From sequence record OP595145.1: DNA of 64,000 nucleotides. The stretch is one strand, 5' to 3'. Numbering within the stretch: position 1 is the stretch's first letter; each line of letters begins with the position of its first letter. Under the pieces are notes generated by a model. That model searched no databases. It had not been told where the DNA came from and saw only the letters and a program-made list of their open reading frames with translations. Made by a program: the position numbers and the translations under genes. Positions 747 through 27,176 of this stretch are shown piece after piece. The DNA is from Escherichia phage vB_EcoM_DE16.

Positions 747-1007
747 TTACTCCGCAATTTGAGCCATGAGATCACGCAGTTCGGTAAAACCGCCTACGTA
801 TGTTACCTCCCCGTTCACTTCAGACAGAATTTGTGGAAATGTGCGTGGAGGAACTCCGGTAAGATCAACAACTGTTTTAGTCATTGATTCTAAATCATAG
901 TCTTGGTCAAGACTTAAATATTCAAACTGTTTATTGCGCATAGTCAATAGTTGTTTTGACATTTCACAAAATTGACAGTTAGGTTTACCAAAAATTACAA
1001 ATTCCAT
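747..1007 (-). CDS. glutaredoxin-like protein (NrdH/Grx family)
   Basis: 86 aa, N-terminal CQFC (CxxC) redox motif in FGKPNCQFCE context; start overlaps rmlD stop. Confidence 0.7.
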   Translation of the reverse strand: MEFVIFGKPNCQFCEMSKQLLTMRNKQFEYLSLDQDYDLESMTKTVVDLTGVPPRTFPQILSEVNGEVTYVGGFTELRDLMAQIAE

Positions 1008-1849
1008 TACCTCTCCTTATTAAGTAATACTGCTAAAGACTGTTCAATACCTTTATTTAAATCTGATTTTGTAAGATAGTGACTGGTTACTAGTTGTGAC
1101 TTCACCGGACGTGCTGCTGGAGCATTATAGGTTGAAGCTGATACCGCCGATATCTTAACAGGTTCTGGCATCTGTGTCAAGATCTTTTCCGCAAACTCCG
1201 CCCAAGAAATAAGATGGCTTCCTGCAAAATGGTAAGTCTTAACAGACCTTGACCAACCTGTTTTTAATACTTCAAAAATAGCTTCTGCTAAATCTGGAGC
1301 ATATGTTGGACAAGATAACTGATCAGCAACAATAATAAAATCACGTTGTCCATCATTATAGCGAGACAACATGGTTTTTAGAAAGTTATTTCCAAATTCG
1401 CTATATACCGAGGCTGTTCGAATAATATATGCATTTGGGTTAACTCCTCGCACCATTTTTTCACCAAGTTCTTTCGTATACCCATAATTGTTTATTGGGT
1501 TAGGTGTAGTATCTTCAAAAATAGGATGAGAATAATTAAAAATATAGTCTGTGGAAATATGCACAAAATCAATTTTAAGTTTGCTGCACACTGCCGCAAT
1601 ATTTGCAGGGCCATAAGCATTAACAGCCAAAGCAGTAGCAAAATCTTGTTCGGCTTTATCTACAGCCGTATAAGCGGCGCAATTAATAACACCATCTACA
1701 TAATCTTCAACAATAGCGTTTCGCACAGCTTCAAAATTTGTAATATCTACACGTTCTTTAGGATAAATTAAAGATACATTTGCAGGAGCAACTTTACGTA
1801 AAGCTTGTCCCAGTTGTCCATTACCACCCAATACCAGATATGTTAGCAT
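1007..1849 (-). CDS. rmlD: dTDP-4-dehydrorhamnose reductase
   Basis: 280 aa; N-terminal GGNGQLG Rossmann motif, STDYIF and YGYTK catalytic motifs typical of RmlD. Confidence 0.8.
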   Translation of the reverse strand: MLTYLVLGGNGQLGQALRKVAPANVSLIYPKERVDITNFEAVRNAIVEDYVDGVINCAAYTAVDKAEQDFATALAVNAYGPANIAAVCSKLKIDFVHISTDYIFNYSHPIFEDTTPNPINNYGYTKELGEKMVRGVNPNAYIIRTASVYSEFGNNFLKTMLSRYNDGQRDFIIVADQLSCPTYAPDLAEAIFEVLKTGWSRSVKTYHFAGSHLISWAEFAEKILTQMPEPVKISAVSASTYNAPAARPVKSQLVTSHYLTKSDLNKGIEQSLAVLLNKER

Positions 1850-2409
1850 ACACCCTCGCTACGTAACTGTTGAAAAGATTTAGCCATTGCATCTTTTGTT
1901 GATAGGATAGGTTTAAAACCTTCATCAAAAATCATATCGAAGCCCCAATCGATCCCTATATCAGGATCATCCCAACGTAAACTTTGTTCACTAGAAGGGT
2001 CGTATGGAGTTGTGCATTTGTATTCAAAGATAGCATCCATACTCAAAACTATAAAACCATGTGCCAAACCAGGTGGAAGCCAAAACTGCGTATGGTGTCG
2101 TGCACGAAGAACAACACCGTCCCAAGCACCGTAAGTAGGACTATCTTTACGTAAGTCTACAGCGAAATCCAATACTTCACCACTTACACAACGAACAAGC
2201 TTACCTTGCGGATTATTTGTTTGAAAGTGCATTCCTCGCAAAACACCGAAGTTTGATTTAGACATGTTATCTTGAACGAAAGTTTGTCTACCAATAATAT
2301 CTTCGTATTTTTGTTCATTATATGTTTCTAAAAAGAAACCACGGTCATCTTTATAAACGTCTGGTTTGATAATTACCGCACCTTCAATTTTTGTTTTTTC
2401 TACTTTCAT
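1843..2409 (-). CDS. rmlC: dTDP-4-dehydrorhamnose 3,5-epimerase
   Basis: cupin-type RmlC motifs ([15 protein letters not shown]); start set at internal ATG 2409 (GGAGGG RBS) overlapping rmlA stop as ATGA; the track ORF 1843..2529 has a spurious upstream extension. Confidence 0.8.
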
Positions 2410-3284
2410 TTTCCCTCCGCTAATTTGAGTAGGTATTGCCCGTACTCTGTTTTCTTCAGTGAGTTTCCATGATAGACCAAAGTCTCTAAAGAAATCCACC
2501 CTTTTTTGAAAGCAATTTCTTCCAGGCACGCAATCTTCAATCCTTGACAGTTCTCAATAGTCTGCACGAATTGACCAGCTTCCATCAGACTGGCGTGTGT
2601 TCCTGTATCAAGCCAAGTAAATCCTCGTCCGAGAACTTCTACTTGTAACTTCCTGTCTTCGAGGTAGCTGCGATTGATATCGGTGATCTCCAGTTCTCCA
2701 CGCGCGGAAGGGGTTACTTCTAATGCACGTTGAATAACAGAGTTATCATAGAAATACAAACCTGTGACAGCATAATCTGATTTAGGATTTTCAGGTTTCT
2801 CTTCAATAGAAATAACTTGACGATTACTCCCAAATTCAACCACACCGAATCGTTCAGGATCTTTCACCAAACACCCGAAGATACAAGCTCCGCCCCAAAC
2901 ATCTACCATCTCACTAGCGTTAATCAGTAGTTTACCAAAGCTTTGTCCGAAGAATAGGTTGTCACCTAAAATAAGAGCAACAGAGTCTTCTCCGATAAAA
3001 TCTTTACCGATGATGAAAGCGTCCGCAAGACCTCGTGGCTCGGATTGGATTGCGTAAGTGAGTTTTATCCCAAACATAGACCCATCTCCAAGAAGATGCT
3101 CAAAGTCTTCCTGATCGCCTGGTGTGGTGATGATTAAGATATCCTTAATGTCAGCCAACATCAATACCGATAAAGGGTAGTAGATCATGGGTTTGTCATA
3201 CACAGGGAGCAATTGCTTGCTCACACTGCGTGTTACCGGATGAAGGCGGGTTCCACTTCCTCCCGCCAAAATAATACCTTTCAT
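2406..3284 (-). CDS. rmlA: glucose-1-phosphate thymidylyltransferase
   Basis: 292 aa; N-terminal [16 protein letters not shown] nucleotidyltransferase signature. Confidence 0.85.
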
Positions 3285-3292
3285 AACCCTCC

Positions 3293-4285
3293 TTAAATCT
3301 TCTCACTCCACCATTGAGGGTTGTTTAAGTACCATTCAATCGTTGAGTAGAGATCTTGTTCAAATGTAGAGTTTGCACTCCAACCCAGTTCAGACTCTAT
3401 TTTAGAAGGATTGATTTCATAACGCAAGTCATGTCCTTTACGATCTTCAACAAAAGTTATCAAGTTGGAAGAAGGGTAGGTTCCTGCTTCTGGATGTACA
3501 GCATCCATGTAGTCACAAACCATATAGATGATCTCCATATTGGTTTTGGGATTACGTGTTCCAACATTATACGTTTGACCTGGTTCTCCACCTGTTGCCA
3601 CTTGAAGAATAGCTCGCGCATGATCCTCAACAAAAAGCCAGTCTCGCACCTGATCGCCTTTACCATACACCGGAATCTCTTTATTCGTCAAGATACTTGT
3701 GATGATTTTTGGGATCAGCTTTTCTGGATGTTGATAAGGTCCAAAGTTATTGGAGCAGTTGGTTATCACAACAGGTAAACCGTAGGTACGGTACCAAGCT
3801 TTCACAAGATGGTCAGATGCTGCCTTAGACGCACTGTACGGGCTTGAAGGAGCATAAGCTGTCTCTTCGGTAAAGGGAACGCCAGAGTCTGCCATATCGC
3901 CGTACACTTCGTCTGTGGAGACGTGTACGAACATCTTCAGTTTATTTTTTGGGAGGAGCCTTGCAGCTTCCAATAAATTGTATGTGCCAATAATATTGGA
4001 GTCGATGAAAACTCGTGGATTCTTGATAGAATTATCCACATGACTCTCTGCCGCTAAGTGAATGATGAAATCGGGATTGCACTCTACTACTAAACTTTTG
4101 ACCTGGGTTTCGTTTGCCAAATCTGTTATGCTTAGTTTAACGTGAGTGATATCGCCTACATTCTCAATATCTGCTGCATAGCCCATCTTATCAACGACAA
4201 AAACTTCGTTATTGGGATCTTGACAAAGAGAGCGCACCACGGCACTCCCAATAAAACCAAGACCACCTGTTACCAGATAGCGCAT
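3293..4285 (-). CDS. rmlB: dTDP-glucose 4,6-dehydratase
   Basis: 330 aa; TGGLGFIGS Rossmann motif, STDEVYG and YSASKAASD catalytic motifs of SDR-type dehydratases. Confidence 0.85.
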
Positions 4286-4917: not shown

Positions 4918-5126
4918 TATTCCTCCTTAATTATTTCAAATTTGGCAACACCATTTACAATAATATGACCACAAGACATAACTCCTAGCCAAGGATCGCC
5001 GTTTTTCTTCAGGCGTTTACCGAATACATCACAAAAACCATTCTTCATTTCAGAGGCTTCATAAGAAGCCCCTTTATCAAAAACGTCTTTGAATGTGTCG
5101 ATTATACCAACACATTTCAAAATCAT
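4917..5126 (-). CDS. hypothetical protein (69 aa)
   Basis: ORF abutting nrdB stop. Confidence 0.4.
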   Translation of the reverse strand: MILKCVGIIDTFKDVFDKGASYEASEMKNGFCDVFGKRLKKNGDPWLGVMSCGHIIVNGVAKFEIIKEE

Positions 5127-6211
5127 TAGAAGTCAAGCTCCTCATCATCAGAGAGATCTTTGTTAGCTGAATTCAATTTGTAATTAGTTAACTGAATCTC
5201 TTGGGCTGCTGACTGAATCAAATCAGGATTCAACCATTTTTCCATCCAAGCTAAAGGGCTATGTTTAGGTGCTTTAAACTTGGCTTTCATTTTCAATCGA
5301 CGATAAATAGGAGCAGCATTGAAATAAACCCACTGTTTAGACAATTCGGCGTTAAGACCTACAATAAAACGACCTTCACTAAACAGGTAGTCACACCATT
5401 GTTCCTCTTGTTCAACAACAGTGTCGAGGATCAAAGTCAACTCTTCAATATTGTCTTCGTAAATTTTACGCCAAATTGGGTCATGCATCAATGCATCAAT
5501 TACAGCATAATCCATTTTAACATGCAGGATTTCATCTAGCATAATTTTCTGGATCAGTTTACAAGCCCCAACAAACAGTTGTTGTTCTGCCATAGCAAAA
5601 GTAGCAGAGAAGGAAGATATAAACTGAATACCTTCTAATCCAATCAGGGCTACCATCCCTTTAAGAATCAGCAGTCGAAGTTCATCGTTAGCTTCAATCA
5701 ATCCTAGAGCATACTTATGACCAGCTTCTTCCAATTGACCCATGATATCAGCAATGATACCCATACGATTGAAAATTTTATCATTAATCATAATCTGATT
5801 GATGACTTCGATTGGATCTGGAGTACATTGACGGATTATTTCAGAATACGTTAACGCATGGAGAACTTCCATTTCACTCTGCTTCATCATCATAGCACAG
5901 GCTTCATTGTTACTCAAGAATGGAGAGAACAAAGTGATGATTGATTTTGCAAGAGAATCATTTTCCCATTGGAACGATAAGTTTTTAATCATAACATCAT
6001 AGTTGTTTTTAGAACAAGCTACGAAATCTTTACGTGTCTGATCCAGATTGACTTCATTCTCATCCCAATCTTGTGCTTTTTGAAGTTTGTAGAGTTTGTG
6101 CATCTCTGGATAAGTTACGTTAACAGAATCAAAGATCCCTAACTGTTCCCCTAAAAATACTGGATATTTTCCTGTTTTGTAAACTTCATTGTGTAAATTA
6201 ATTGCTGCCAT
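5126..6211 (-). CDS. nrdB: ribonucleotide reductase class Ia small subunit
   Basis: 361 aa; paired E..H iron-ligand motifs (EVLHALTYSE, DEILHVK) and ferritin-like helical composition. Confidence 0.8.
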   Translation of the reverse strand: MAAINLHNEVYKTGKYPVFLGEQLGIFDSVNVTYPEMHKLYKLQKAQDWDENEVNLDQTRKDFVACSKNNYDVMIKNLSFQWENDSLAKSIITLFSPFLSNNEACAMMMKQSEMEVLHALTYSEIIRQCTPDPIEVINQIMINDKIFNRMGIIADIMGQLEEAGHKYALGLIEANDELRLLILKGMVALIGLEGIQFISSFSATFAMAEQQLFVGACKLIQKIMLDEILHVKMDYAVIDALMHDPIWRKIYEDNIEELTLILDTVVEQEEQWCDYLFSEGRFIVGLNAELSKQWVYFNAAPIYRRLKMKAKFKAPKHSPLAWMEKWLNPDLIQSAAQEIQLTNYKLNSANKDLSDDEELDF

Positions 6212-6279: not shown

Positions 6280-8523
6280 CTACATTTTACAGGCACTGCA
6301 CCCTTCGTCTTCAGAATCTTCTTGTGCTAAAGAGTCTGCTGATTTTGTTCTACTATTAAGGTAATACAATGATTTGCCACCCAGTCTAGCAAAATTCAGA
6401 ATAAACTGCATCTCAGCTTTCACGGATAAACGTCCACCTACCAATTTAGAATAATCTAGCCAAGAATCACAAGAAATTCCTTGGTCAGTAAACTTGGTAA
6501 AGATACCGTACATTTCTGCAAGGTCTTTAGCCGGAGTATCCCAGGCAGACTGGTAGAACATTTTCAGTTTTTCGTAGTCTGGAACAATAAATAATACACT
6601 ACCTTTCTGACTCTGTTTATACATAATAGTATCACGAACAGGATACAGAGAGTTAGTAGTATTGCTTACCAAACTGCTGGACTCATTAGGTGCAATAGCA
6701 GCCAAGACACTGTTACGGATACCACCTTGTTCAATGATTTCAGCACGTAAGCCTTCCCAGTCCATTTTAAGATCAAAATTACCGATACTATCTACTGTTT
6801 TAGCATAAGTGTCAATTGGTAGCCAACCTTGAGGCCATTTGGTCTTATCGATCCATTCCGCATTACCTTTTTCCTTAGCCAGACGCAGAGAGGCTTTTGC
6901 CAACCAAAAGTAATGACGTTCTGCAAGTTCATGCATTAATTTTTTAGCATAAGCATCTGAATAATTTACAAAATTACTTGCCAAGTAATGCGCTAAGTTT
7001 GTAATACCTACACCAATAGATCTACGTGCTTTAGCAGTTATTTCGTTATGTTTAAATGGATAATCCATTGTTTCAATAACGTTGTCAATTGTCAATACAG
7101 TGTAGTATGCAACATCCTCATATTCTTCAGGTAATACACGACCAGCAACAATAGAAGATAAGAAGCATAAAGCCAATTCTTGATCTTCTGTATTCTCACC
7201 AGTAAAGAGATCCGGCATACTGTGGAAAGCTTTAGTTGGCAAGAAGATCTCTTGACACAGGTTTGATTGATACACCGTATCCAGGAAAGGTGTATGGTTG
7301 TTAACGTTGTCAGCAAAGAACATGTAAATACGTCCTGTTTCTGCACGTTGAACAATAATCTCTGTCAGAAGATCACGAGCCTTAACAAATTTTTTCTTAA
7401 TGCGTCGTCTACTTACTTTGTCATAAACTGCATCAAACTCTTCTTCACTTTTATATAAAGCTTCATAAAGTTCAGGAGCATCATCACAACTAACTAACAT
7501 CCAGTCTTCGTTTTTTGCTGCTCGACGCAAGAACGAACGGTTAACAACAATAGAATAATCTAGTTTATCCACTCGTTTATCTATAGGTGTTGTTGGATTC
7601 TTCAGTCGAATCAGATCGTCGAAGTCTGGTTCAAGTATGGTAAAGGTAACTGTAGCACTACCTCCACGGCTTGCTTGCTTTGAAGCTCCAACACTATCTT
7701 CCATCCATTTCAGATACGGAAGAAGACCACCGTGAATAATACGATTATTCTTAACACCTTGACCTGTGGCACGAGTTTGAAGATTAACACCAATACCTGC
7801 GTTATTCAACGTATACTCATGAGCTAAGTAATTAGCAATGGCTAAAGACTCTGCCGTATCGTCTGCACGGAATAAACAACAAGACGCACTTCCTTTGATT
7901 GGAGTTCGTAGAGTTGTCAGATATGGCGATGGCAGATTAATCTTAAGATCGCTGACATAAGTATAAAGTTTTTTAATATCTTCTATACGGCGTTCTTTTG
8001 GTTGGATCTCCATAACCTTCATTGCGATACCAATGAAAAGGAACTGTGGAGACTCATGCACCACATCGTTTACTGCATCTCGAATAAGATATTTATCCAC
8101 CATTTGACGTAAAACAGAATAACCATAAGTTAGATTTTTATTATGCTTTACAATCTTACCGATTTCTTTGATCTCTTCATCAGTATAATCCATTTTAGCC
8201 CAATGACCACGTTCTACCATATCATGATAAAAGGTATTCAGTGAAGGGATACTGTGGTATCCCCCATGAGCCTGTTTGTAAATCATACCCAGAAGAAGTC
8301 TTCCTGCCATATCACTGTAAGCTTGTGTTTTCTTGTCAATACACGCTGCAATCATTGCTTTATGCAGATCACGTGTAGACACACCGTCATAACACCGCTT
8401 CACAGCTTCTAATTCAATTTCAGACCAGTTTAGTTTACCTGCTGCAAATTCAGACCACTTGCGAAGTTTTTCTGGGTTAAACTCCTCTGTCTTACCATTA
8501 GATTTAGTTACAAAACGAATCAA
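6280..8523 (-). CDS. nrdA: ribonucleotide reductase class Ia large subunit
   Basis: 747 aa; N-terminal ATP-cone-like region; size and adjacency to nrdB; overall RNR alpha-like composition. Confidence 0.85.
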   Translation of the reverse strand: MIRFVTKSNGKTEEFNPEKLRKWSEFAAGKLNWSEIELEAVKRCYDGVSTRDLHKAMIAACIDKKTQAYSDMAGRLLLGMIYKQAHGGYHSIPSLNTFYHDMVERGHWAKMDYTDEEIKEIGKIVKHNKNLTYGYSVLRQMVDKYLIRDAVNDVVHESPQFLFIGIAMKVMEIQPKERRIEDIKKLYTYVSDLKINLPSPYLTTLRTPIKGSASCCLFRADDTAESLAIANYLAHEYTLNNAGIGVNLQTRATGQGVKNNRIIHGGLLPYLKWMEDSVGASKQASRGGSATVTFTILEPDFDDLIRLKNPTTPIDKRVDKLDYSIVVNRSFLRRAAKNEDWMLVSCDDAPELYEALYKSEEEFDAVYDKVSRRRIKKKFVKARDLLTEIIVQRAETGRIYMFFADNVNNHTPFLDTVYQSNLCQEIFLPTKAFHSMPDLFTGENTEDQELALCFLSSIVAGRVLPEEYEDVAYYTVLTIDNVIETMDYPFKHNEITAKARRSIGVGITNLAHYLASNFVNYSDAYAKKLMHELAERHYFWLAKASLRLAKEKGNAEWIDKTKWPQGWLPIDTYAKTVDSIGNFDLKMDWEGLRAEIIEQGGIRNSVLAAIAPNESSSLVSNTTNSLYPVRDTIMYKQSQKGSVLFIVPDYEKLKMFYQSAWDTPAKDLAEMYGIFTKFTDQGISCDSWLDYSKLVGGRLSVKAEMQFILNFARLGGKSLYYLNSRTKSADSLAQEDSEDEGCSACKM

Positions 8524-8539
8524 CTTCTCCTCCCTATTA

Positions 8540-8794
8540 TTAATGCATATTCAAAACATCTACATCATAACCGAACTTCATTTCATTAAAAAGTCCATTA
8601 GCATATAGAAAACCTTCAAAATGAGTTATGTCATCAAACCCTTTTGCTTTTGCTCGACGATCTGCTTCTTGTCTTTTAGGAGATAAACGTTTTGAAGTGT
8701 CTAGAATTACAGTTACATTACAACCAATAGTTTCATCAAAATAGACTTCGATTTCACAGCCTTCATATTTATTATCAGTCATTGTCCCTCTCAT
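8540..8794 (-). CDS. hypothetical protein (84 aa)
   Basis: ORF only. Confidence 0.45.
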   Translation of the reverse strand: MRGTMTDNKYEGCEIEVYFDETIGCNVTVILDTSKRLSPKRQEADRRAKAKGFDDITHFEGFLYANGLFNEMKFGYDVDVLNMH

Positions 8795-9234
8795 TGATTA
8801 GTATCATCTGCTTTCGCAGGATCATAAGAGTTACCGAAATCATCCATCTTAATATGTGACGCACCCCAACCTGTAAATTCTTCATCACCAAAATGAAAAA
8901 TATCATTTTCTTGATAGATTCGTTTAAAACCACAATTAGGTGAAACAGGGAAAGTGAAAAGCGTTGTATTTGCAAACACTACTCGCTTATCGTTATTGCT
9001 TCGGATATTCACATTACGCTCAACAGAATAGTGTGAATCTTCAGCCATACCCAGCATTACAAGCGACGCTCTAATAACAGCATTTTGTTTCTCGTGTGGG
9101 ATATTGCCATTGTGTTTATTTGATTCTAGTTTCCAGATAGGGGTAGACATTACAGTAGACATGCTTACGGTAGCCCAAGTTGTAGTATTTACTAATGACA
9201 TATTTTCTCCTTCGTTTTGAATGGGAGGACTCAC
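8791..9234 (-). CDS. hypothetical protein (147 aa)
   Basis: ORF in the nucleotide-metabolism block; no secure motif. Confidence 0.45.
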   Translation of the reverse strand: MSPPIQNEGENMSLVNTTTWATVSMSTVMSTPIWKLESNKHNGNIPHEKQNAVIRASLVMLGMAEDSHYSVERNVNIRSNNDKRVVFANTTLFTFPVSPNCGFKRIYQENDIFHFGDEEFTGWGASHIKMDDFGNSYDPAKADDTNQ

Positions 9235-9299
9235 CTCCTCCCAGTATTGTGCTATATTATACTAAAACTAATACTAAAGTCAATAACTATTTAAACAGA

Positions 9300-10298
9300 T
9301 CACCATTTAGTATGATTTGTTAAAAGTTGACGATGTTGAATCCAACCTTTGAAATTGCCAGACCAAAACTTACCATTACGATCTACATGGGTAATACCTG
9401 GTTCCCAAGAGTTAAAATCCCAAGGAGCATTGATAAACAAATCTTCAAAACAGTTCTCTCCGTATTGTTCGCATGTTTCTTGCATTGGGGTGGCTTGATG
9501 TTCAAACGGAGAAGCATGAACCTTGCGCCCAGTTAGCAAACGACCATAAATATCTAAAGCTTTATCTTTAGTTGCATTCAAACGACGATAGCTAACCTGT
9601 GCACAACACGAAGCTGAAATAGCTTTAGCTTCTTCCAAAGTAAGCACAACAACTTCTCCAGATTCATCTTGAACATAGTATCCACCAAAAACAAAATGAT
9701 CGTCACCTTCTGTGCCAATATTATCATAGAAATGGTCTACATAAGGTGTGTGCCATTGCCCTGGTTTAAGCACTTCTGGTGTAGATTCTTCATACTCTTT
9801 GTGCATCTCTTTAGCCAAAGCTTCGATAGTAGGATCGGCTTCTTTGTCATCACGTAGCCACCAGAAATTTTCATATTCTGTTGCTGTCAGAACTGTTTTA
9901 ATTCGTTGGAAAGGTTCCAGAAGACGGTTTGCAACTTGTTTGTGGTACCCTGCCAAAGAGAATTCTTCTGCAAAACGTGCTGCACTAAGCGCGGCAAGAT
10001 CCCACCACTCTTGAGCAGTATAACCTGCATCAATAAGAGCGTCATGATCAACACCTTTATCCTGCATACCAGGTTGGTTAGCCCCAAAACGATAAGGACG
10101 AGCAGGCTGATTTCGCACCATTTCGATCAGTGTTTTAACAGGTATAGCACGGCTAGAAGCAGCGTTACGACTGAATAGGCGGTGAGTCATCAGTTCTGAA
10201 TGAATAATACGTGGATATTCAAGTTCGAAAGTTACAATCTCTTTTCCGTCTTCAGTGATGGAATGCGCAATAATACTAGCCGAAATCTGTTTTGTCAT
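9300..10298 (-). CDS. flavin-dependent thymidylate synthase-like protein (ThyX family, atypical)
   Basis: THRLFSRNAASSR matches the ThyX RHR-x7-S-x-x-x-R signature except Thr for the first Arg; 332 aa is about 100 aa longer than canonical ThyX. Confidence 0.55.
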   Translation of the reverse strand: MTKQISASIIAHSITEDGKEIVTFELEYPRIIHSELMTHRLFSRNAASSRAIPVKTLIEMVRNQPARPYRFGANQPGMQDKGVDHDALIDAGYTAQEWWDLAALSAARFAEEFSLAGYHKQVANRLLEPFQRIKTVLTATEYENFWWLRDDKEADPTIEALAKEMHKEYEESTPEVLKPGQWHTPYVDHFYDNIGTEGDDHFVFGGYYVQDESGEVVVLTLEEAKAISASCCAQVSYRRLNATKDKALDIYGRLLTGRKVHASPFEHQATPMQETCEQYGENCFEDLFINAPWDFNSWEPGITHVDRNGKFWSGNFKGWIQHRQLLTNHTKW

Positions 10299-10307
10299 TT
10301 TTTCTCC

Positions 10308-10916
10308 TTAGTTTTTAAAATTGTTCAAAGTGTTAAAAACATCCAAACATGTTAGCCACTGATCTTCTAAACCTGTGATCACAACATTTGGTTTTTTCTT
10401 TAGTTCTTCTAGATGGTTATCTTTATAAGGCGTATTAAAATATATTTTAACCACTTCATCTGGAAAATATAGTAGGTTATCAGCCCTGTCATCTATTGCT
10501 ATATCACAAGGCAATAAATATTTTTCTTTCGTAGCAAAAAAGCCGTTACCAGATCCTTTGCTAAAATCAATCGTATCTAATGTTCTTAAAACATGCTTAT
10601 GTTTAGAACTTAAGTGACCACCTTTTGTCACACTTGCGATCAAAAGATTGCTACCTTTCCTTGAAACATACTTTAAGAAATCTGGCATACCTGGAACAAA
10701 ACCCATTGTATCATAGAGATGAGGATTATCCAGAAATCCGTAAGGATCTATATTGAACTCCTCCCTGAAACCAGGAAAGTAGTTGGTAAGATCATAGTCT
10801 GCATTTTTTGTGAATGTGTCTATCTTAACACCAAGTCCACTAATCTTATTCAACCATTCTAACCAAGCAACATCTAATGGAGCCACAACTAAATCCCAAT
10901 CACATACTATCTGCAT
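10308..10916 (-). CDS. HAD-superfamily 5'-nucleotidase-like protein
   Basis: N-terminal hhhhDxDxh-type block (IVCDWDLVV) at residues 3-11; location among nucleotide-metabolism genes. Confidence 0.4.
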   Translation of the reverse strand: MQIVCDWDLVVAPLDVAWLEWLNKISGLGVKIDTFTKNADYDLTNYFPGFREEFNIDPYGFLDNPHLYDTMGFVPGMPDFLKYVSRKGSNLLIASVTKGGHLSSKHKHVLRTLDTIDFSKGSGNGFFATKEKYLLPCDIAIDDRADNLLYFPDEVVKIYFNTPYKDNHLEELKKKPNVVITGLEDQWLTCLDVFNTLNNFKN

Positions 10917-10952
10917 AAAACCTCCTCTCTCTTTTAGTATAGTTATCTTATA

Positions 10953-11528
10953 CTAACTTTCAATTTCCTGCAATAGGATTTTGACTATTTGTTTGCGGCG
11001 TTTTGCTACTGTGCTTTCAGGTTCTATTTTACGCTTCTTCAACCAAGCTTTATCTTTCTTAGCTCTACACAAAGCTATCGCTTCTTTTTCAGCTTTTGCT
11101 TCTTCAAAAGATATGCCTTGCTTGTCTGCATAAGCAAGAATAGAGTTGCACAATTTACAAACCATGCGCAAATCTTCTTCTTTCACATAGATTAAACGGA
11201 AAACAAAAAGAGGAATATCATCAAAACATTGAAGTTGTTTTGCTGCGTGAATATGATCCACTTGGAAGTCTTTCATTCCTCCTCTATGTCCACATATTTC
11301 GCACTCACAATTCCAAACTTGTTTTGGTTTTCCAGTTTTCTTATCTATCATTACATTGCCGTCTTTATCTACACGATCAACTTTAAAACGCCTTGCATTG
11401 ATAACCTTAATTTTATTAGGGTGTCTCATCCATGCTTTTCTAAAGCATCCCCTAAGATAAGTATAAAATTCAGCTTGTGTTTTCCAGGGTGTTCCTTCAC
11501 CCCACATTATTTTTGGTTCACCTGCCAA
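10953..11528 (-). CDS. HNH endonuclease-like protein
   Basis: CECEICG ... VDHIHA ... CKLCNS zinc-ligand and catalytic His pattern of HNH nucleases. Confidence 0.5.
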   Translation of the reverse strand: MAGEPKIMWGEGTPWKTQAEFYTYLRGCFRKAWMRHPNKIKVINARRFKVDRVDKDGNVMIDKKTGKPKQVWNCECEICGHRGGMKDFQVDHIHAAKQLQCFDDIPLFVFRLIYVKEEDLRMVCKLCNSILAYADKQGISFEEAKAEKEAIALCRAKKDKAWLKKRKIEPESTVAKRRKQIVKILLQEIES

Positions 11529-11695
11529 TATTGCTCACCTTTTTAGCTGTATATTCCCCTGGTGGGATATTATGTTTAAAAAACAAAAGGCGGTCTAACC
11601 CCGCCTTGCACATTGTTTCTGGAATAGTCAAAGTTAGTAAAAGTTTATCACCTTTTCGGTTGAATATTTTATAAACTTCTCCTGCTCCATATTGT

Positions 11696-12097
11696 TTAGT
11701 ATTGCTCGCCACTAATACGTTCCTTAAGTTGTTTAATAGCTTCGATTGCATCTACATAAGAAGAGTTATACATGTGTTTCAGTGCCACTCGTATTAAAGG
11801 ATCTTTTGTGAAGAAATCAATAAGAAGCATAGCTTGATCATGTTTAGCTGCATTTGTCATAGATGGATAATTTTCACGAACCATATACGTGTTATTTTGC
11901 ATAAGGGTTCTTTCTAGTTCAATACAATGGATAGCTTTATCTAGGTTAATCTGACGTTCACCTTTAATACGTGTTGCGTATTTTGCCAATTTGCAAAAAC
12001 AAGGTGTGCCACCAACCAAATAAGCTAGTTCAATAGGTTGCATTGCCATTTTTGTGTAGTGATCACCGTCAACCTGATTATCAAAAGCATTAGACAT
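11696..12097 (-). CDS. hypothetical protein (GDHY motif, DUF3310-like)
   Basis: N-terminal VDGDHY...QPIE resembles a conserved phage domain of unknown function; family name recalled from memory. Confidence 0.35.
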   Translation of the reverse strand: MSNAFDNQVDGDHYTKMAMQPIELAYLVGGTPCFCKLAKYATRIKGERQINLDKAIHCIELERTLMQNNTYMVRENYPSMTNAAKHDQAMLLIDFFTKDPLIRVALKHMYNSSYVDAIEAIKQLKERISGEQY

Positions 12098-12353
12098 AAT
12101 TTTCCTCCTGAATTCCTACTGCACCTTCTTCTGGGTAGTCTGCATAATAAGCTACCCTACCTTGATAGATAATATCACCATCGTCATTGTAGATCGCTGT
12201 ATCTTCTTGAATTGTTATTTCAACATCAAGCAAATCTGGGTCTTTCTCGATAGTATAGTTCAAACCTAACATTTCAAACAGTTCGAAAATTTCGTTACCT
12301 GTTAATGTAATGCTCATATTTCCTCCTTTTATTGTGGTTAGCAGAGTATACAC
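12090..12353 (-). CDS. hypothetical protein (87 aa, acidic)
   Basis: ORF only. Confidence 0.45.
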   Translation of the reverse strand: MYTLLTTIKGGNMSITLTGNEIFELFEMLGLNYTIEKDPDLLDVEITIQEDTAIYNDDGDIIYQGRVAYYADYPEEGAVGIQEENYV

Positions 12354-12403
12354 TAATATAAAATTTTTGTCAATAAAAAAGGGAGCAATAAGCTCCCTGA
12401 TTA

Positions 12404-13363
12404 TTAGATTCCAATGATAGTTGCTGCTCGTTTATCCTTGGATCTGGTGTTTGCTCTACTACGTGACAAACCTCCGCAAGATTCACAACGAATAATATCG
12501 AAAGAACTTACCGCAGTGTGGTATTGTTTACCAGTAACAACGTGAACGTGATCACTGCCACAACGAGAACAACGGACCTTCTCATCTGGGTAATAAGCGG
12601 ATAAGTTAGGATGCTGTGGAATCCACGGAAGGATTTTCATATACAAATCACGGAGTGAAACAACATCGCCATCATTGTAAATCTGCATACGTTCAAAAGC
12701 ATCACGATCACCTTCACAACATGCTTTCCATAAAGGGAACCCCTCGTTATCCAGTTTTTCACTTTCTGTTTCGAAATATGCTCCCATTTCTTTAAGGGAG
12801 TTGGAAGGAAGTGCAAATTGTTTCTTAGCTGCCTTCAATGTATCAACAACTACATAATTAGAAGGAGGAGCCATATCGTGATATGCAAATCGTTGGTTAA
12901 TGTATGCACGGTCAAACTTATACCCGTTGTGTGCCACAACTACATCTGCCTCATTCAGAAGGTTCCAAAGATCTTGGCAAAGCTCCCAATCATCTGTATG
13001 ATCAATATCAAAAAGAGGATAAGAAGACAAATTCTTACCTTCCACTTCACCAGTATACAGATCAGCAGAAGAATAAGATAACAAATAACCTCTGCGAATT
13101 ACCTGGTCTGGAGAAATGAAGGCTTTGAATCGACGGAAAGTATATGCAATCTCTGGTGCAGTTTCAACATCAATAATTTTAATAACTGGTTGTTTCTTTT
13201 TAACTGATTCTTGTTTACTTCCACTGAAACGTGCAAGGAAATCATTCACTGTGCTTTTTCTTGTTGGGCTACCTAAAACAATTGCTGCAATATTGCGAGA
13301 AGACATACCCTCTGCACTCATACTAAGGATATCTGCTTTCTGCTCTTCTGTTAATCTGCTCAC
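12404..13363 (-). CDS. DEDD-type 3'-5' exonuclease with N-terminal HTH and C-terminal zinc ribbon
   Basis: IIDVETAPE (Exo I), HNGYKFDRAYI (Exo II), YNDGDVVSLRDLY (Exo III-like); two C-terminal CxxC pairs. Confidence 0.5.
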   Translation of the reverse strand: MSRLTEEQKADILSMSAEGMSSRNIAAIVLGSPTRKSTVNDFLARFSGSKQESVKKKQPVIKIIDVETAPEIAYTFRRFKAFISPDQVIRRGYLLSYSSADLYTGEVEGKNLSSYPLFDIDHTDDWELCQDLWNLLNEADVVVAHNGYKFDRAYINQRFAYHDMAPPSNYVVVDTLKAAKKQFALPSNSLKEMGAYFETESEKLDNEGFPLWKACCEGDRDAFERMQIYNDGDVVSLRDLYMKILPWIPQHPNLSAYYPDEKVRCSRCGSDHVHVVTGKQYHTAVSSFDIIRCESCGGLSRSRANTRSKDKRAATIIGI

Positions 13364-14478
13364 TCTGCCTCCTGTTGTGAGATGTATGACTGAAGCATAC
13401 TCTCAAATGTTGTATCGTCATTATCCCAGCGTTTCATGTATACCAACTGGAAAATTGTTTCTATCCATTCATCTGTTGTCATATGGACTTCTTCTCCATC
13501 CCAAGAAGTAAAATTAACACCATCTGGGAACCACGAGTAGTAAGTATCTTTAACTGTTTGGAAAAGCTCTGCTTGAGTTTTACAAGCTGAAAGAAGATTA
13601 AAACAAGTAATATCTCCAAACTTAATATCAAAATCTTGATAGGGTCGGATACTATCTGTTTTATCTCCCATTAGCATCTGATATGCTAACCAGTAACTGC
13701 CCCAACCTTTAACTTCTTTCTTTTTACCTTTATCTACGATCCATATATCGCCAATAGATTCATCAATAAGAATTATATCTGGATTTTTAAAGACTCCATC
13801 TTCTTTGTAGAAATTAAAAAGAATACTAGGAGTATGTAAACTATCTTTATCTATAGATACCACGATATAAGAAAATTTACCCGTCCTTTTATAATCTTTA
13901 TAACCTTGGAAACCATATTTCTCTAACTCATCATCAGCTTCTATTACAGTAACAACATCACCATTGTGGAACTCCACAAGATAATCTTTGGTTTCTGAAA
14001 GCTGAAGTGGTTTGATATCTAATCGTTCAGATTTATATTCTACAGGCATTTTGAAGGCGTGTCTGAAAGTTTTTCCTACGCCAATAACTCCGCAATATTT
14101 TTCTAAACGTAGATGTTTTAGAATACCTAAGACTTTTGTTTTAGCTGCTTGGAAGGTGTGTCCGATATCTTCTGGCGGGTATTGCTTATCAATGATTTCG
14201 AACTCTTCCTTTGTGAAGGGACGTTTGTTTTTGGAGGCTCTTTCTGCATTTGTATCTCCTAGCCAACCTCCAATTTTAGTCTTGCTTTTACCCCAAAACT
14301 CTGTCTTATTTTTAAATTCCTTTTGAGCACCTGAAGGGATGTGCTTCGCAATGATTGTTCTTTTCTCTAATGCAGACGCTGCTTGGAAAGCAATCTGATC
14401 ATAATCAATTGCAGCTATTGTTTCTTCGTTGACATATAAATGAAGATCTTCAGGTTTAATTAAAATATAACCGCTAAT
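13360..14478 (-). CDS. RNase H/FEN-family 5'-3' exonuclease; true start uncertain, no ATG/GTG/TTG in first 147 codons
   Basis: EADD, S-x-DKD and GDKTDS (H3TH-like) motifs after Met at 14049; upstream in-frame 147 codons have no stop and carry the IAAIDYDQIA block resembling the T4 RNase H N-terminus; ATT at 14478 follows AGGGGGA. Confidence 0.55.
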   Translation of the reverse strand: MSGYILIKPEDLHLYVNEETIAAIDYDQIAFQAASALEKRTIIAKHIPSGAQKEFKNKTEFWGKSKTKIGGWLGDTNAERASKNKRPFTKEEFEIIDKQYPPEDIGHTFQAAKTKVLGILKHLRLEKYCGVIGVGKTFRHAFKMPVEYKSERLDIKPLQLSETKDYLVEFHNGDVVTVIEADDELEKYGFQGYKDYKRTGKFSYIVVSIDKDSLHTPSILFNFYKEDGVFKNPDIILIDESIGDIWIVDKGKKKEVKGWGSYWLAYQMLMGDKTDSIRPYQDFDIKFGDITCFNLLSACKTQAELFQTVKDTYYSWFPDGVNFTSWDGEEVHMTTDEWIETIFQLVYMKRWDNDDTTFESMLQSYISQQEAE

Positions 14479-15707: not shown

Positions 15708-16433
15708 TTACTTATTAATAATACCTGCAATATTAGGTTTGACAAAGGTCGATGGTTTCATGATCTTACCTTTATCATCAAAGAACACATACACTTTCTG
15801 TTTTTCATTATAAACAGCATGAACACCAGTGTATGCCCCTTCTGGACGATTGGCATTTCGTTCTTCAATTGCAGCGCATTCTTGTGCAATGGCTGAATCG
15901 ATATCTGAAGTTTTCCAAGTTTTCAGCAACTGTTGTTTAGTTGGATACTTGGAATCATTACTTTTCAATACCTCTTTAATAACTTTCTTTTCTGGATATT
16001 TTGAACGGATTAGAGTGTCACGAGACATACGCATAATACCCGCAGCCATTAGCGCCATTTGAACTGGCTCTGTAAATGTTTGTTCCAAAGCATCGAAATC
16101 GGTATACACAGTTGGAGTAAAAACATCGCCTACAGCATAGTCCAAGAAATTCATCGTATGTTCTTCACCAAAGAACATGTAAGTCAGATAACTGGATACT
16201 ACAAAAATATCCGCTGCTGCATCCAAGAGTTCTACATGATCGTTTACTTTCGCGGCTGTTTCATACTCTTTAAGCTCTTCACGAACGAACCCGATTTGAG
16301 ACATAAATAGCTCTTGAGTGAATTCAGGTTGTTCACCACCTCGTGCTTTGGCATTCCAATCAATCACGTGCTTCGCGGCATTTTTGAAAAATTCAGTATC
16401 GAACTTAATATCTTTAAAAAAATTCTCGATCAT
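15708..16433 (-). CDS. MazG-like nucleoside triphosphate pyrophosphohydrolase (all-alpha NTP-PPase)
   Basis: EELKEYE...ELLDAAADIF acidic-helix pattern typical of MazG/dimeric dUTPase fold. Confidence 0.45.
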   Translation of the reverse strand: MIENFFKDIKFDTEFFKNAAKHVIDWNAKARGGEQPEFTQELFMSQIGFVREELKEYETAAKVNDHVELLDAAADIFVVSSYLTYMFFGEEHTMNFLDYAVGDVFTPTVYTDFDALEQTFTEPVQMALMAAGIMRMSRDTLIRSKYPEKKVIKEVLKSNDSKYPTKQQLLKTWKTSDIDSAIAQECAAIEERNANRPEGAYTGVHAVYNEKQKVYVFFDDKGKIMKPSTFVKPNIAGIINK

Positions 16434-25064: not shown

Positions 25065-25139
25065 TGGCCCTGTAGCTCAATGGGAGAGCTGTCGGCTCAT
25101 AACCGATAGGTAGCTGGATCGAAACCAGCCAGGGCCACC
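25065..25139 (+). tRNA. tRNA, anticodon CAT (Ile2 lysidine-type or Met)
   Basis: manual cloverleaf: acceptor GGCCCTG/CAGGGCC, anticodon loop CTCATAA, T-loop, encoded CCA; resembles bacterial tRNA-Ile2. Confidence 0.7.
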
Positions 25140-25142
25140 AAC

Positions 25143-25217
25143 GTCTTTATGGTGTAATGGATAGCACAGGAGTCTTCTAAACTCTTAGTCAAGGTTCGAT
25201 TCCTTGTAAAGACACCA
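25143..25217 (+). tRNA. tRNA-Arg (anticodon TCT)
   Basis: acceptor GTCTTTA/TAAAGAC, anticodon loop CTTCTAA, T-loop GGTTCGATTCC, encoded CCA. Confidence 0.7.
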
Positions 25218-25413
25218 GAATATTTTAACATGAATTAGCTCAAGTGATTTGAACCCCACTACTGATCATGGTGGCAGAGAATGAGGCAAGTATGTCAGAC
25301 ATTATAAACAAAGGCCACGGTTATATTAGAAGACATAGACGCTCGAAGAGCACCGTTCGTGGAGAACGGGGGTTGGTGGAGTCACCATTCATGGTAAAAT
25401 GTTTTAAAAAACT

Positions 25414-25443
25414 ATTGACAACAAACATTATTTTATGTTAGAT
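25414..25443 (+). promoter_or_regulatory. sigma70-like promoter candidate (ACTATTGACA -35 box)
   Basis: TTGACA then 17 nt then TTAGAT, upstream of tRNA-Ser. Confidence 0.4.
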
Positions 25444-25451
25444 TATAAGTA

Positions 25452-25542
25452 TGGAAGGGCAAATCGACGTGGCGACGAAAACGGTCTTGAAAACCGCCGA
25501 GCTTGAAAGAGCCTTGGGAGTTCGACTCTCCCTCCTTCCGCC
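25452..25542 (+). tRNA. tRNA-Ser (anticodon TGA), class II
   Basis: anticodon loop CTTGAAA, long variable arm, T-arm GGGAGTTCGACTCTCCC, discriminator G, encoded CCA; D-arm fold is irregular. Confidence 0.6.
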
Positions 25543-25547
25543 AGATT

Positions 25548-25633
25548 AGGTAGATTGGTGAAATGGTAGCCACAACAGTTTGCTAAACTGTAGTCGGAAA
25601 CGGCGTGTAGGTTCGAGTCCTACATCTACCGCC
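25548..25633 (+). tRNA. tRNA-Ser (anticodon GCT), class II
   Basis: acceptor GGTAGAT/ATCTACC, anticodon loop TTGCTAA, variable-arm hairpin, discriminator G, CCA. Confidence 0.7.
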
Positions 25634-25763
25634 AAGTTCTTTTTAATATAGCTTACTTTAATAGAGTAAACTTTCGGCAGATGGCCTCCACCATCTTACC
25701 GATACTTCATAGTTAGTGGTGCGAACACTGGCTATTTTAAAAAGAATTTAAATACTAGCATTT

Positions 25764-25851
25764 AGGTGAGTTAATTCCGTAGGGGTAGCGGGGCAGACTG
25801 TAAATCTGTTATCATTGCGATTCGGGTGGTTCGACTCCATCACTCACCACC
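25764..25851 (+). tRNA. tRNA-Tyr (anticodon GTA), class II
   Basis: acceptor GGTGAGT/ACTCACC, anticodon loop CTGTAAA, long variable arm, discriminator A, CCA. Confidence 0.7.
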
Positions 25852-25857
25852 AAATTA

Positions 25858-25943
25858 AGATGAGTTGGCTGAATGGTTTAAGCGGCGGACTGTTAATCCG
25901 TGTTCGAAAGAACGATATAGGTTCAAATCCTATACTCATCGCC
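25858..25943 (+). tRNA. class II tRNA with anticodon GTT (Asn anticodon on a Ser/Tyr-type body); identity unresolved
   Basis: perfect 7-bp acceptor GATGAGT/ACTCATC, 3-bp D stem, anticodon stem GCGGA/TCCGT with loop CTGTTAA, 15-nt variable arm (GTTC-GAAA-GAAC), T-arm ATAGGTTCAAATCCTAT, discriminator G, CCA. Confidence 0.6.
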
Positions 25944-25950
25944 AGAATTA

Positions 25951-26027
25951 TGGACTTGTAGAGTTAAGGTAAACCCCCAGTCGCCAAGAGGCTTCTGGAA
26001 TTGCAGGTATCGAATCCTGCCGAGTCC
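25951..26027 (+). tRNA. tRNA-like element with aberrant D/anticodon arms (possible tRNA pseudogene)
   Basis: 7-bp acceptor GGACTTG/CGAGTCC and T-arm GCAGG-TATCGAAT-CCTGC (8-nt loop) but no 5-bp anticodon stem with 7-nt loop; no encoded CCA. Confidence 0.3.
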
Positions 26028-26033
26028 CAGCTT

Positions 26034-26108
26034 TGCTCCTATAGTATAATGGCTATTACAACGGTTTTGTAATCCGTGGATCTCTGTTCGATTCAGAGTG
26101 GGAGCACC
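26034..26108 (+). tRNA. tRNA-Thr (anticodon TGT)
   Basis: acceptor GCTCCTA/TGGGAGC, anticodon loop TTTGTAA, T-arm CTCTGTTCGATTCAGAG, CCA. Confidence 0.65.
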
Positions 26109-26608
26109 AACATAACAGGTAAGAACATTTAGGCTACTGAGAAATCATCCGAGGCAATCAGACCTATCTTCTGTTAAGTGTTCTTATCGTTGTGAAGAAA
26201 GCAAACTTATTGAATGTAAGCGGACGAAAGACATTCACTAACCTGTAGTAAGGTCGAGCCAAAGCGCGGTAATGAGTTCCGAGGTTAGTATTCACAACAC
26301 AACATTAAGAGCACTGTGATTGATCGTCGTATCCTGTGCACAAGGTCTGCTCGAAAGACAGTGTTCTTAGTATTGTGTTGATCACAAAAAGAGTTACCTG
26401 AAACTTGACCGGAGTAGGGTTGGATGGGGCAAAAGAAGAAGCGGCTCTCCCATCGACAGCAACGAAGAATAATATTTGACTTTGGTTTTGTATTATTTTA
26501 AGTTAGCTTACCGAACGTAGGGCTAGTCACCCAATGGGATACTCGTCACTGTCCCACTCAATAAAACTATTGACAACCAATAGTAAAATGTAGTATAGTA
26601 AAGATGTA
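26109..26608 (+). ncRNA. ORF-free, tRNA-free 0.5 kb spacer inside the tRNA cluster; structured ncRNA candidate
   Basis: no ORF of 60 aa or more on either strand, no T-loop motif; long-range complementary pairs AAGAACA/TGTTCTT and TTGTGAA/TTCACAA. Confidence 0.25.
26569..26598 (+). promoter_or_regulatory. sigma70-like promoter candidate (ACTATTGACA -35 box)
   Basis: TTGACA then 18 nt then TATAGT, upstream of tRNA-Gly. Confidence 0.45.
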
Positions 26609-26609
26609 G

Positions 26610-26683
26610 GGCGTTCTTGGTGTAGCGGTAGCATTCCGTCCTTCCAAGTCGGCGGCACGAGTTCGATCCTCGTAGAACGCTCC
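26610..26683 (+). tRNA. tRNA-Gly (anticodon TCC)
   Basis: acceptor GCGTTCT/AGAACGC, anticodon loop CTTCCAA, T-arm ACGAGTTCGATCCTCGT, CCA. Confidence 0.65.
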
Positions 26684-26781
26684 AAATTATTTAATAAAGG
26701 GTTGCCAGAAAACTTTCTCTTTTACTCATGGTTTTCTCCTTCTCTCACACCTCTTCTGGTTGCCCTTCATTAAATGATTTA

Positions 26782-26857
26782 TTGGTTTGTAGTGTAGTCA
26801 GGTAGCACACGACACTTTGACTGTCGTAGGTTTGGTTCAAATCCAGACAGACCAGCC
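26782..26857 (+). tRNA. tRNA-Gln (anticodon TTG)
   Basis: acceptor TGGTTTG/CAGACCA, anticodon stem-loop CGACA-CTTTGAC-TGTCG, T-loop TTCAAAT, CCA. Confidence 0.65.
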
Positions 26858-26862
26858 ATATA

Positions 26863-26939
26863 ACGGAATTTAGCTCAGTTTGGTAGAGTGTACGCTTTGG
26901 GAGCGTATTGTCGCAGGTTCGAATCCTGCAATTCCGACC
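26863..26939 (+). tRNA. tRNA-Pro (anticodon TGG)
   Basis: acceptor CGGAATT/AATTCCG, anticodon stem-loop TACGC-TTTGGGA-GCGTA, T-arm GCAGGTTCGAATCCTGC, CCA. Confidence 0.7.
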
Positions 26940-26945
26940 AATTAA

Positions 26946-27019
26946 ATGTTTCGTAGTTCAATGGTAGAACCCACGACTGATAATCGTGAGACACAAGTTC
27001 GATTCTTGTCGAAACAACC
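26946..27019 (+). tRNA. tRNA-Ile (anticodon GAT)
   Basis: acceptor TGTTTCG/CGAAACA, anticodon stem-loop CACGA-CTGATAA-TCGTG, T-arm, CCA. Confidence 0.7.
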
Positions 27020-27021
27020 AG

Positions 27022-27093
27022 TTTCCCGTTAGACTTACAGGATAAGAGTTCCACAGCTTATTGTGATGCTGGTTCGAATCCAGCACGGGATAC
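27022..27093 (+). tRNA. tRNA-like element lacking a canonical anticodon arm (pseudo-tRNA or non-canonical tRNA)
   Basis: good acceptor (TTCCCGT/ACGGGAT), D-arm and T-arm GCTGGTTCGAATCCAGC, but only 16 nt between D- and T-arms, forming CACAG/TTGTG stem with 4-6 nt loop; 3' end ACC not CCA. Confidence 0.3.
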
Positions 27094-27097
27094 CTAA

Positions 27098-27176
27098 TAG
27101 CGGGATAGAGGAGTCTGGTCGTCCTCGCCAGTTTCATATGCTGGAGATCATTGGTTCAAATCCAATTCCCGCCTCC
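27098..27176 (+). tRNA. tRNA-Met (anticodon CAT), possibly initiator-like
   Basis: anticodon stem-loop CCAGT-TTCATAT-GCTGG, T-loop TTCAAAT, acceptor AGCGGGA/TCCCGCC with A1:C72 mismatch, CCA. Confidence 0.6.

Follow-up and report, generated by a model that had tools for sequence, protein, structure and literature searches.

A circularly permuted ThyX homologue in a phAPEC8-like coliphage, typical of a very large phage clade and probably the phage's own source of thymidylate

The stretch of DNA analysed here, 64,000 nucleotides (nt) of Escherichia phage vB_EcoM_DE16 (record OP595145.1; the whole stretch is hereafter the window), belongs to the genome of a Phapecoctavirus, a phAPEC8-like coliphage of the Stephanstirmvirinae. 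On its minus strand, at 9300..10298, lies a complete coding sequence for a ThyX-like protein of 332 amino acids (aa) plus the stop codon, an assignment that draws on the list of open reading frames (ORFs), Pfam Thy1, PHROG 85 and the annotation in 99%-identical phages. The ORF begins with ATG and contains VTFELEYPRIIHSELMTHRLFSRNAASSRAI; a Shine-Dalgarno GGAG, read from the sequence, precedes the start codon by 5 nt (10304..10307, minus strand), and the stop codon of the upstream gene lies 9 nt from it. Canonical ThyX is a homotetramer with bound flavin adenine dinucleotide (FAD) and active sites shared by three subunits, and it converts deoxyuridine monophosphate (dUMP) to thymidine monophosphate (dTMP). 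A preliminary description of this DNA had called the protein an atypical ThyX, about 100 aa too long and having Thr where the RHR motif begins with Arg, and had left it either a divergent thymidylate synthase or a pyrimidine-modifying enzyme of the same fold. Relatives in GenBank already carry the annotation ThyX for this gene; what is new here is a circularly permuted ThyX with an apparently remodelled flavin pocket, typical of a very large phage clade.

The homology to ThyX/Thy1 is beyond chance. Pfam Thy1 (PF02511) matched at 35.0 bits (E = 1.6e-8; gathering score 24.8), covering only residues 22-175, equivalent to profile positions 59-191 of 191, and phrog_85, 'thymidylate synthase', matched with E = 2e-109. 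No Pfam family besides Thy1 matched the protein, which does not qualify as a classical thymidylate synthase. The TIGR02170 thyX equivalog model gave 31.6 bits, below its cut-off of 87.9, whereas ThyX from Thermotoga maritima scores 226.8; the hidden Markov model search proposed in the preliminary description thus ended above the Thy1 gathering score and below the equivalog cut-off. In the Protein Data Bank (PDB), a profile of 96 family members matched only ThyX chains; ThyX from both Mycobacterium tuberculosis and T. maritima outscores PolB, a ThyX relative from Streptomyces cacaoi. The profile was required: a single-sequence phmmer search of the PDB found no match, and pairwise BLAST and tblastn with T. 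maritima ThyX fail to detect the gene. The AlphaFold2 model built on the 96-member alignment has a mean predicted local distance difference test (pLDDT) of 94.4 and a predicted template modelling score of 0.91, and shows the ThyX three-dimensional fold; its fold matches in BFVD are phage 'thymidylate synthase' entries only.

The homologous parts do not follow one another in the canonical order. In the profile search of the PDB, T. maritima ThyX was matched as three pieces, out of order: chain residues 32-72 (SAVRAARVSF...HGHETPFEH) correspond to profile positions 217-259 (here SASCCAQVSYR...KVHASPFEH), 73-102 to positions 26-55 (here VTFELEYP...THR...SSR), and 167-212 to positions 132-177, the end of the core here. 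Similarly, hhalign against an alignment of canonical ThyX gave two independent, non-collinear matches, residues 14-194 with T. maritima chain 66-225 (E = 9.4e-6) and residues 203-331 with chain 11-154 (E = 2.5e-5), the confidence of the latter being concentrated in residues 203-271, which equal native T. maritima 1-63; the C-terminal half alone against the canonical N-terminus gave E = 2e-6 and an hhalign probability of 89%. The canonical alignment was built from real sequences, and the T. maritima query is 100% identical to the PDB chain. Predicted secondary structure reads strand, strand, helix, helix and short helix over residues 202-267 and continues, over 20-171, with a strand, a helix and what is left of the core, and the AlphaFold2 assignment matches the canonical order once a permutation is allowed.

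In a re-ordering test, residues 200-267 were put ahead of 21-176 and the chain was rescanned, with the core alone, tail plus core, and shuffled segment plus core as controls. The re-ordered chain gave one collinear Pfam Thy1 match over profile positions 14-191 at 47.4 bits (controls 32.2, 31.2 and 32.2 bits, respectively) and a TIGR02170 match over positions 17-206 at 45.3 bits (controls 26-27 bits), still below the cut-off of 87.9. For both models the gain was 15-18 bits, and coverage now reached profile position 14-17. The native chain lacks the collinear order of N-terminal hairpin, two helices, HxxPxEH and core with RHR; two non-collinear matches, replaced by a collinear one upon re-ordering, identify the segment order B-A instead of A-B as a circular permutation whose cut lies between PFEH and the first strand of the core. 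We found no account of a permuted ThyX chain in the literature, our search there being limited.

Explanations by duplication were tried and rejected. The C-terminal WIQHRQLLTNH as a vestigial second RHR, left by a tandem duplication, received an hhalign probability of 0.1-0.4% when the tail (268-332) was compared with the protein's own head or with canonical ThyX; an internal repeat of N- and C-terminal halves received 0.15%; and relatives of about 640 aa that might have been tandem ThyX duplications or permutation intermediates actually contain inteins (Intein_splicing, HNH, LAGLIDADG). The N-terminus of one homologue (P0260, residues 14-72) is weakly similar to residues 224-282 of the window protein (BLAST, E = 4e-5 against one sequence), which may be due to chance or to a duplication in an ancestor; profile self-comparison gives it no support.

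The difference in length noted in the preliminary description is real, 332 aa against 220 aa in T. maritima ThyX, and the surplus of about 107-110 aa is not an added domain: it comprises the permuted order and three clade-specific additions. The first of these, residues 1-19 (10242..10298, minus strand), has no counterpart in T. maritima ThyX in the hhalign alignment and contains, according to the AlphaFold2 secondary structure and conservation, a β-strand (6-14) that pairs as a hairpin with the first core strand and in which S13 is nearly invariant. The ThyX core follows (residues 20-175; 9774..10241, minus strand), equivalent to T. maritima residues of about 60-213 and holding R30, E35, T38-H39-R40, S43, N45, S48, R50, R125, N144 and R149. 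Residues 176-202 (9693..9773, minus strand) form a linker, delimited by conservation, from the old C-terminus to the old N-terminus; it bears an invariant W-H183-x-P185-Y-V motif and has no equivalent in canonical ThyX in the hhalign alignment. The relocated segment, residues 203-271 (9486..9692, minus strand), corresponds to the canonical N-terminal ~60 residues according to the HMMER profile search of the PDB, hhalign and the re-ordering test, and consists of two strands, two helices and HxSPFEH, with S236 equal to S30 of T. maritima, H261 to H53, S263 to T55, E266 to E58 and H267 to H59. Finally, a clade-specific tail of 61 aa (residues 272-332; 9303..9485, minus strand) comprises a variable loop (272-300) and a conserved G-x-T-H...W-S-G-N315-F-x-G-W-x-Q321-x-R323-Q.

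Residues 38-50, THRLFSRNAASSR (10149..10187, minus strand), are by alignment and conservation the ThyX signature motif, canonically RHRxxSxNxxSxR, with Thr for the first Arg. HMMER and hhalign pair T38 with R78 of T. maritima ThyX, H39 with H79, R40 with R80, S43 with S83, N45 with N85, S48 with S88 and R50 with R90, which confirms both the active-site alignment and the Thr substitution of the preliminary description; in place of the signature RHRX7S (Myllykallio 2002, as quoted in PMC2826268) the motif reads THRX7S. Thr and length are atypical with respect to canonical ThyX, but they are no peculiarity of this gene, being family-wide: among 127 full-length representatives of the clade, position 38 is Thr in 121, H39 is present in 125, and position 40 is Arg in 101.

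To compare the active sites more broadly, we inventoried 22 functional positions in 41 canonical and these 127 clade sequences, of which 15 are conserved in both groups (canonical/here: S30/S236, H53/H261, T55/S263, E58/E266, H59/H267, H79/H39, R80/R40, S83/S43, N85/N45, S88/S48, R90/R50, R147/R125, N169/N144, L173/L148 and R174/R149). Residues equivalent by alignment to the dUMP ligands are almost uniformly retained (S48 in 124/127, R50 in 125/127, R125 in 126/127 and R149 in 127/127). Among the flavin and folate contacts, S236, H261, H39, R40 and N45 are kept, whereas R78 is replaced by Thr (T38), R165 by Thr (T140) and Y91 by Ala (A51) throughout the clade; N163 (Thr/Ser), H178 (Asp/Ala/Glu), Q75 (Glu) and E86 (Ala/Ser) also differ. 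The residues of RHR bind the FAD phosphates and ribityl chain (PMC6514825, PMC11940539), and its first Arg, R78, hydrogen-bonds the isoalloxazine, contacts dUMP and is thought to stabilise anionic FADH- (PMC11940539, PMC6514825). The R165 equivalent contacts the FAD phosphate and ribityl (PMC6514825), and Y91 covers flavin N5 and dUMP C5 as a lid, its mutation slowing flavin oxidation about 1000-fold (PMC11940539). With the dUMP residues kept and R78, R165 and Y91 lost, the nucleotide site therefore looks intact and the flavin pocket looks rebuilt, as judged from aligned residues. Sixteen residues are invariant over 96 sequences down to 38% identity, among them H39, R50, R125, R149, S236 and H261, and conserved or invariant residues specific to the clade are H183, P185, R238, N315, Q321 and R323; clade-specific residues may stand in for R78, R165 and Y91, with H183, R238, N315, Q321, R323 and K120 as candidates.

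The gene lies in a block of DNA-metabolism genes. Directly upstream is a HAD-family gene resembling the pyrimidine 5'-deoxynucleotidase NT5C (10308-10916, minus strand; a marginal match, 26.1 bits against a cut-off of 24.8), which, 9 nt from thyX, is probably co-transcribed with it; a candidate sigma-70 promoter ahead of both, TTGAAA-16-TATACT (10936..10963, minus strand), comes from a consensus scan only. A free-standing HNH endonuclease gene (10953-11528, minus strand; phrog_1985, E = 8.5e-66) sits near these nucleotide-metabolism genes, a position typical of homing endonucleases. Downstream of thyX lie two conserved ORFs (8540-9234, minus strand; 147 aa, phrog_15711, and 84 aa, phrog_15807) that have no Pfam or NCBIfam match, followed by nrdA (6280-8523) and nrdB (5126-6211). 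A near-consensus sigma-70 promoter found by the same type of scan just past the thyX stop codon (TTGACT-16-TATAAT, 11/12; 9256-9283, minus strand) is a candidate placed so that it could drive the two small ORFs and nrdAB. The preliminary description was right about the neighbouring ribonucleotide reductase (RNR) and, with the marginal match, about the nucleotidase; the MazG-like pyrophosphohydrolase that it also placed beside the gene (15708-16433) is 5.4 kb away and not adjacent.

Further downstream of nrdB the same block holds a complete dTDP-L-rhamnose pathway (1007-4285, minus strand; Pfam E 1e-66 to 1e-80), comprising RmlB-like (3293-4285), RmlA-like (2406-3284), RmlC (1843-2529) and RmlD (1007-1849) genes, all identified with Pfam, and the rhamnose may go to DNA, to the virion or to the host surface; the annotation of this block in the close relative anhysbys names the RmlC/RmlD pair only. 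Genes for glutaredoxin (747-1007) and lysozyme (84-584) follow the rhamnose genes. With nrdA, nrdB and glutaredoxin in the window, nrdD/G are present in anhysbys. As the preliminary description had suggested of ThyA, neither it nor dihydrofolate reductase, dUTPase or a canonical ThyX was found in the window or the complete anhysbys genome by annotation or by tblastn (all E>0.03); in particular, E. coli ThyA as query gave nothing with E<0.1 in either. The content of guanine plus cytosine (GC) is 36-44% across the window, and that of the host about 51%. Away from this block, 10 transfer RNA genes (Met x2, Arg, Ser, Asn, Thr, Gly, Gln, Pro and Ile) lie at 25066-27177 on the plus strand, after a switch of gene orientation and GC-skew sign at about 24000.

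Elements of this context recur with the clade. RNR adjoins the clade gene also in Vibrio phage ICP1 and in Pakpunavirus, a deoxycytidine triphosphate (dCTP) deaminase gene lies about 1.1 kb upstream of it, three genes away, in phage G7C, and a dCMP deaminase gene is two ORFs from it in N4-like roseophages (PMC2784036, PMC11981692). The pairing of nucleotidase and thyX is not seen in ICP1, Pakpunavirus or G7C.

The clade itself is large and essentially phage-borne. Over bases 8500-11000 the window shares 99% identity with phages AV125, anhysbys and phAPEC8, and there are 68 phage records in which at least 80% of this segment is covered; close relatives annotate the gene as 'FAD-dependent thymidylate synthase', 'putative thymidylate synthase' or 'thyX', and several as 'hypothetical protein'. 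A word-indexed search retrieved >6900 relatives, and when representatives at 50% identity were scanned exhaustively with HMMER, 4183 clusters matched at E<=1e-10, 1634 of them at E<=1e-30. Of 270 retrieved sequences, 225 have THR as the motif and one has RHR; THK, THN, THG and VHN also occur. With tblastn, 1034 phage records match the protein; hosts of the clade are rV5-like Vequintavirus, phAPEC8-like phages and related ~146-kb coliphages, Vibrio phage ICP1 (gp193), Pseudomonas Pakpunavirus, N4-like podoviruses (G7C gp30, annotated as similar to N4 gp30), phiCbK-like Caulobacter phages and others. A motif-limited scan of 185,579 species-representative bacterial genomes returned 17 loci; these being few and mostly on phage-sized contigs of metagenome-assembled genomes, there is no evidence of cellular use.

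Inteins (Intein_splicing with HNH or LAGLIDADG) interrupt homologues of 520-680 aa, for example P0128, P0143, P0152, P0168, P0205 and P0227. They occupy at least four sites, all of them within the equivalents of ThyX catalytic motifs: after H33, in or after THR...SS|R, after H261, and after LRxH. In at least one rV5-like phage, vB_EcoM-ECP26, the gene was deposited as two adjacent 'thymidylate synthase' ORFs (A0A4Y5TVX3, 245 aa, and A0A4Y5TVY4, 97 aa; BFVD), which could reflect a genuine division of the gene or else a frameshift or faulty sequencing, and several phage records likewise show two features under one tblastn match.

The gene probably encodes the phage's own flavin-dependent thymidylate synthase, a member of the permuted ThyX clade (N4 gp30/ICP1 gp193/rV5 type) that carries out ordinary dTMP synthesis. 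The enzyme would be an oligomeric flavoprotein reduced by NAD(P)H, as in ThyX, with dUMP held by S48/R50 (=S88/R90), R125 (=R147), R149 (=R174) and R30 (=M. tuberculosis R87). The methylene group of methylenetetrahydrofolate would pass to flavin N5 and on to C5 of dUMP, there to be reduced to methyl, giving dTMP and tetrahydrofolate, and the folate/flavin contacts H261 (=H53) and S236 (=S30) would be supplied by the segment that now follows the core. Alongside the adjacent RNR, the product would meet the demand of a phage of 38-40% GC for thymidine triphosphate (dTTP), which the low GC content relative to the host is expected to raise, and it would also supply the dTTP-consuming dTDP-rhamnose genes: since RmlA consumes dTTP, the rhamnose pathway would add to the demand on a thymidylate synthase, and this would connect the two sets of genes more simply. 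Ordinary dTMP synthesis is thus the best reading of a sole thymidylate synthase candidate that neighbours RNR and has relatives in restriction-sensitive phages, and inteins within catalytic motifs, typical of essential enzymes, support it. The divergent thymidylate synthase of ThyX fold envisaged in the preliminary description is accordingly backed by sequence, profile and fold matches, by the retained dUMP and most flavin/folate residues and by the context; the structure prediction and active-site comparison that it had called for gave the pLDDT of 94.4 and the 15/22 conserved positions described above.

Several observations weigh against this conclusion: the score below the TIGR02170 cut-off, the seven replaced active-site positions, the complete rhamnose cluster in the same block, and the failure of our literature and PDB searches to find an assayed or solved clade member. 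The replacements and the sugar genes together raise the possibility that ThyX chemistry here halts short of the reduction or is directed at a different pyrimidine, making for instance 5-hydroxymethyl-dUMP (hmdUMP) that is later glycosylated (rhamnosylated), so that the phage DNA is modified. Genes resembling pyrimidine 5'-nucleotidase and MazG lie in the vicinity, and thymidine-excluding phages (SPO1-type systems) likewise have nucleotidase and MazG-like genes; the nucleotidase neighbour, however, is not conserved in ICP1, Pakpunavirus or G7C. The loss of the first RHR Arg, the stabiliser of reduced flavin, and of the Tyr lid would suit such an enzyme (PMC11940539, PMC6514825), but the uracil- and phosphate-binding R149, R125, S48 and R50 are invariant. 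In anhysbys, four consecutive annotated glycosyltransferase genes lie beside the primase and polymerase, between primase/helicase and the other genes of the replication block (10294-13438; annotation only), and Olsen et al. speculated that such genes serve glycosylation of hydroxymethylated nucleotides (PMC7552041); yet ICP1, Pakpunavirus and N4-like G7C lack such sugar genes and still carry members of this clade with identical invariant residues, and the dCTP/dCMP deaminase neighbours in N4-like phages fit plain dTMP synthesis. Kropinski et al. proposed the ThyX homologue of phage SP-15 as an hmdUMP synthase and cautioned that the two activities cannot be told apart by sequence alone (PMC5977210). 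Restriction argues the other way: the clade is present in the BASEL phage MaxBurger (tblastn), Vequintavirinae and phi92-like Stephanstirmvirinae are 'exceptionally susceptible' to type I-III restriction-modification (PMC8594841), and Stephanstirmvirinae are sensitive to defence systems whose presumed target is unmodified DNA (PMC13463889). We therefore consider base modification improbable, and the pyrimidine-modifying enzyme of the preliminary description gains no positive support. A bolder version, in which the permuted clade as a whole omits the final reduction and releases a C5-hydroxymethyl (or otherwise functionalised) deoxyuridylate that phAPEC8-like phages decorate by means of their dTDP-rhamnose genes, is distinctly improbable; if true, the clade would be an undescribed flavin-dependent route to modified thymidine.

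A methylase of ThyX fold could also act on another substrate, such as uridine monophosphate (UMP), as PolB does, or uracil in nucleic acid. This is very unlikely in a DNA-precursor context (RNR and glutaredoxin, and dCTP deaminase in relatives) with no sign of RNA or antibiotic pathways and with M. tuberculosis and T. maritima ThyX scoring above PolB. The least credible alternative is a catalytically dead ThyX relic that is retained because it serves structure or regulation, for instance by binding dUMP/dTMP or flavin: the lost equivalents of R78, R165 and Y91 and the score below the equivalog threshold would be expected of one, but not the 16 invariant residues, the very large clade, the inteins in its motifs and the position of the gene as sole thymidylate synthase candidate in an AT-rich phage.

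For the window the consequence of assigning ordinary dTMP synthesis to the gene is modest, but ThyX is an antibacterial drug target whose mechanism is still under study, with R78 and Y91 featuring in current models, and this clade may be the most frequent type of thymidylate synthase in large phages of Gram-negative bacteria. Either a flavin pocket of another construction can support ThyX chemistry, or the function of these enzymes is not quite the same. The annotation of the clade is inconsistent, with many 'hypothetical protein' records, because the TIGR02170 equivalog model misses it and domain models cover half of the protein.

Compared with T. maritima ThyX (TM0449; PDB 1O26, 5CHP, 8REO; 220 aa), the protein conserves 15 functional residues, from S30 through R174, replaces R78, Y91, R165, N163, H178, Q75 and E86, and carries the equivalent of residues 1-60 after the core, at 203-271. 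M. tuberculosis ThyX (PDB 2AF6) and Helicobacter pylori ThyX (3AH5) differ from it by the same permutation and active-site replacements; by its position 8 residues before the motif, R30 would be the counterpart of the M. tuberculosis dUMP ligand R87 (PMC6514825), whereas R95, R190 and Y108 of that enzyme have no like-for-like equivalent here. The characterised viral ThyX, A674R of PBCV-1 (PDB 2CFA, 4FZB), for which thymidylate synthase activity was shown biochemically (Graziani et al. 2004, as listed in PMC5954106), is canonical, with 217 aa, collinear order and RHR, in contrast to the non-canonical protein described here, which is known from sequence and model. S. cacaoi PolB, a UMP/dUMP methylase (PDB 4P5A), is also collinear, accepts UMP and belongs to a nucleoside-antibiotic pathway, to which there is no contextual link here. 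N4 gp30/G7C gp30, ICP1 gp193 and the rV5-type 'thymidylate synthase' are true members of the family, 40-54% identical over the full length and differing only by sequence divergence, and in four distant clade members THR, SSRAIP, WHxPY, HASP(F/T)EH and (W/F)IQxR(Q/K) follow one another in the same order as in the phage protein.

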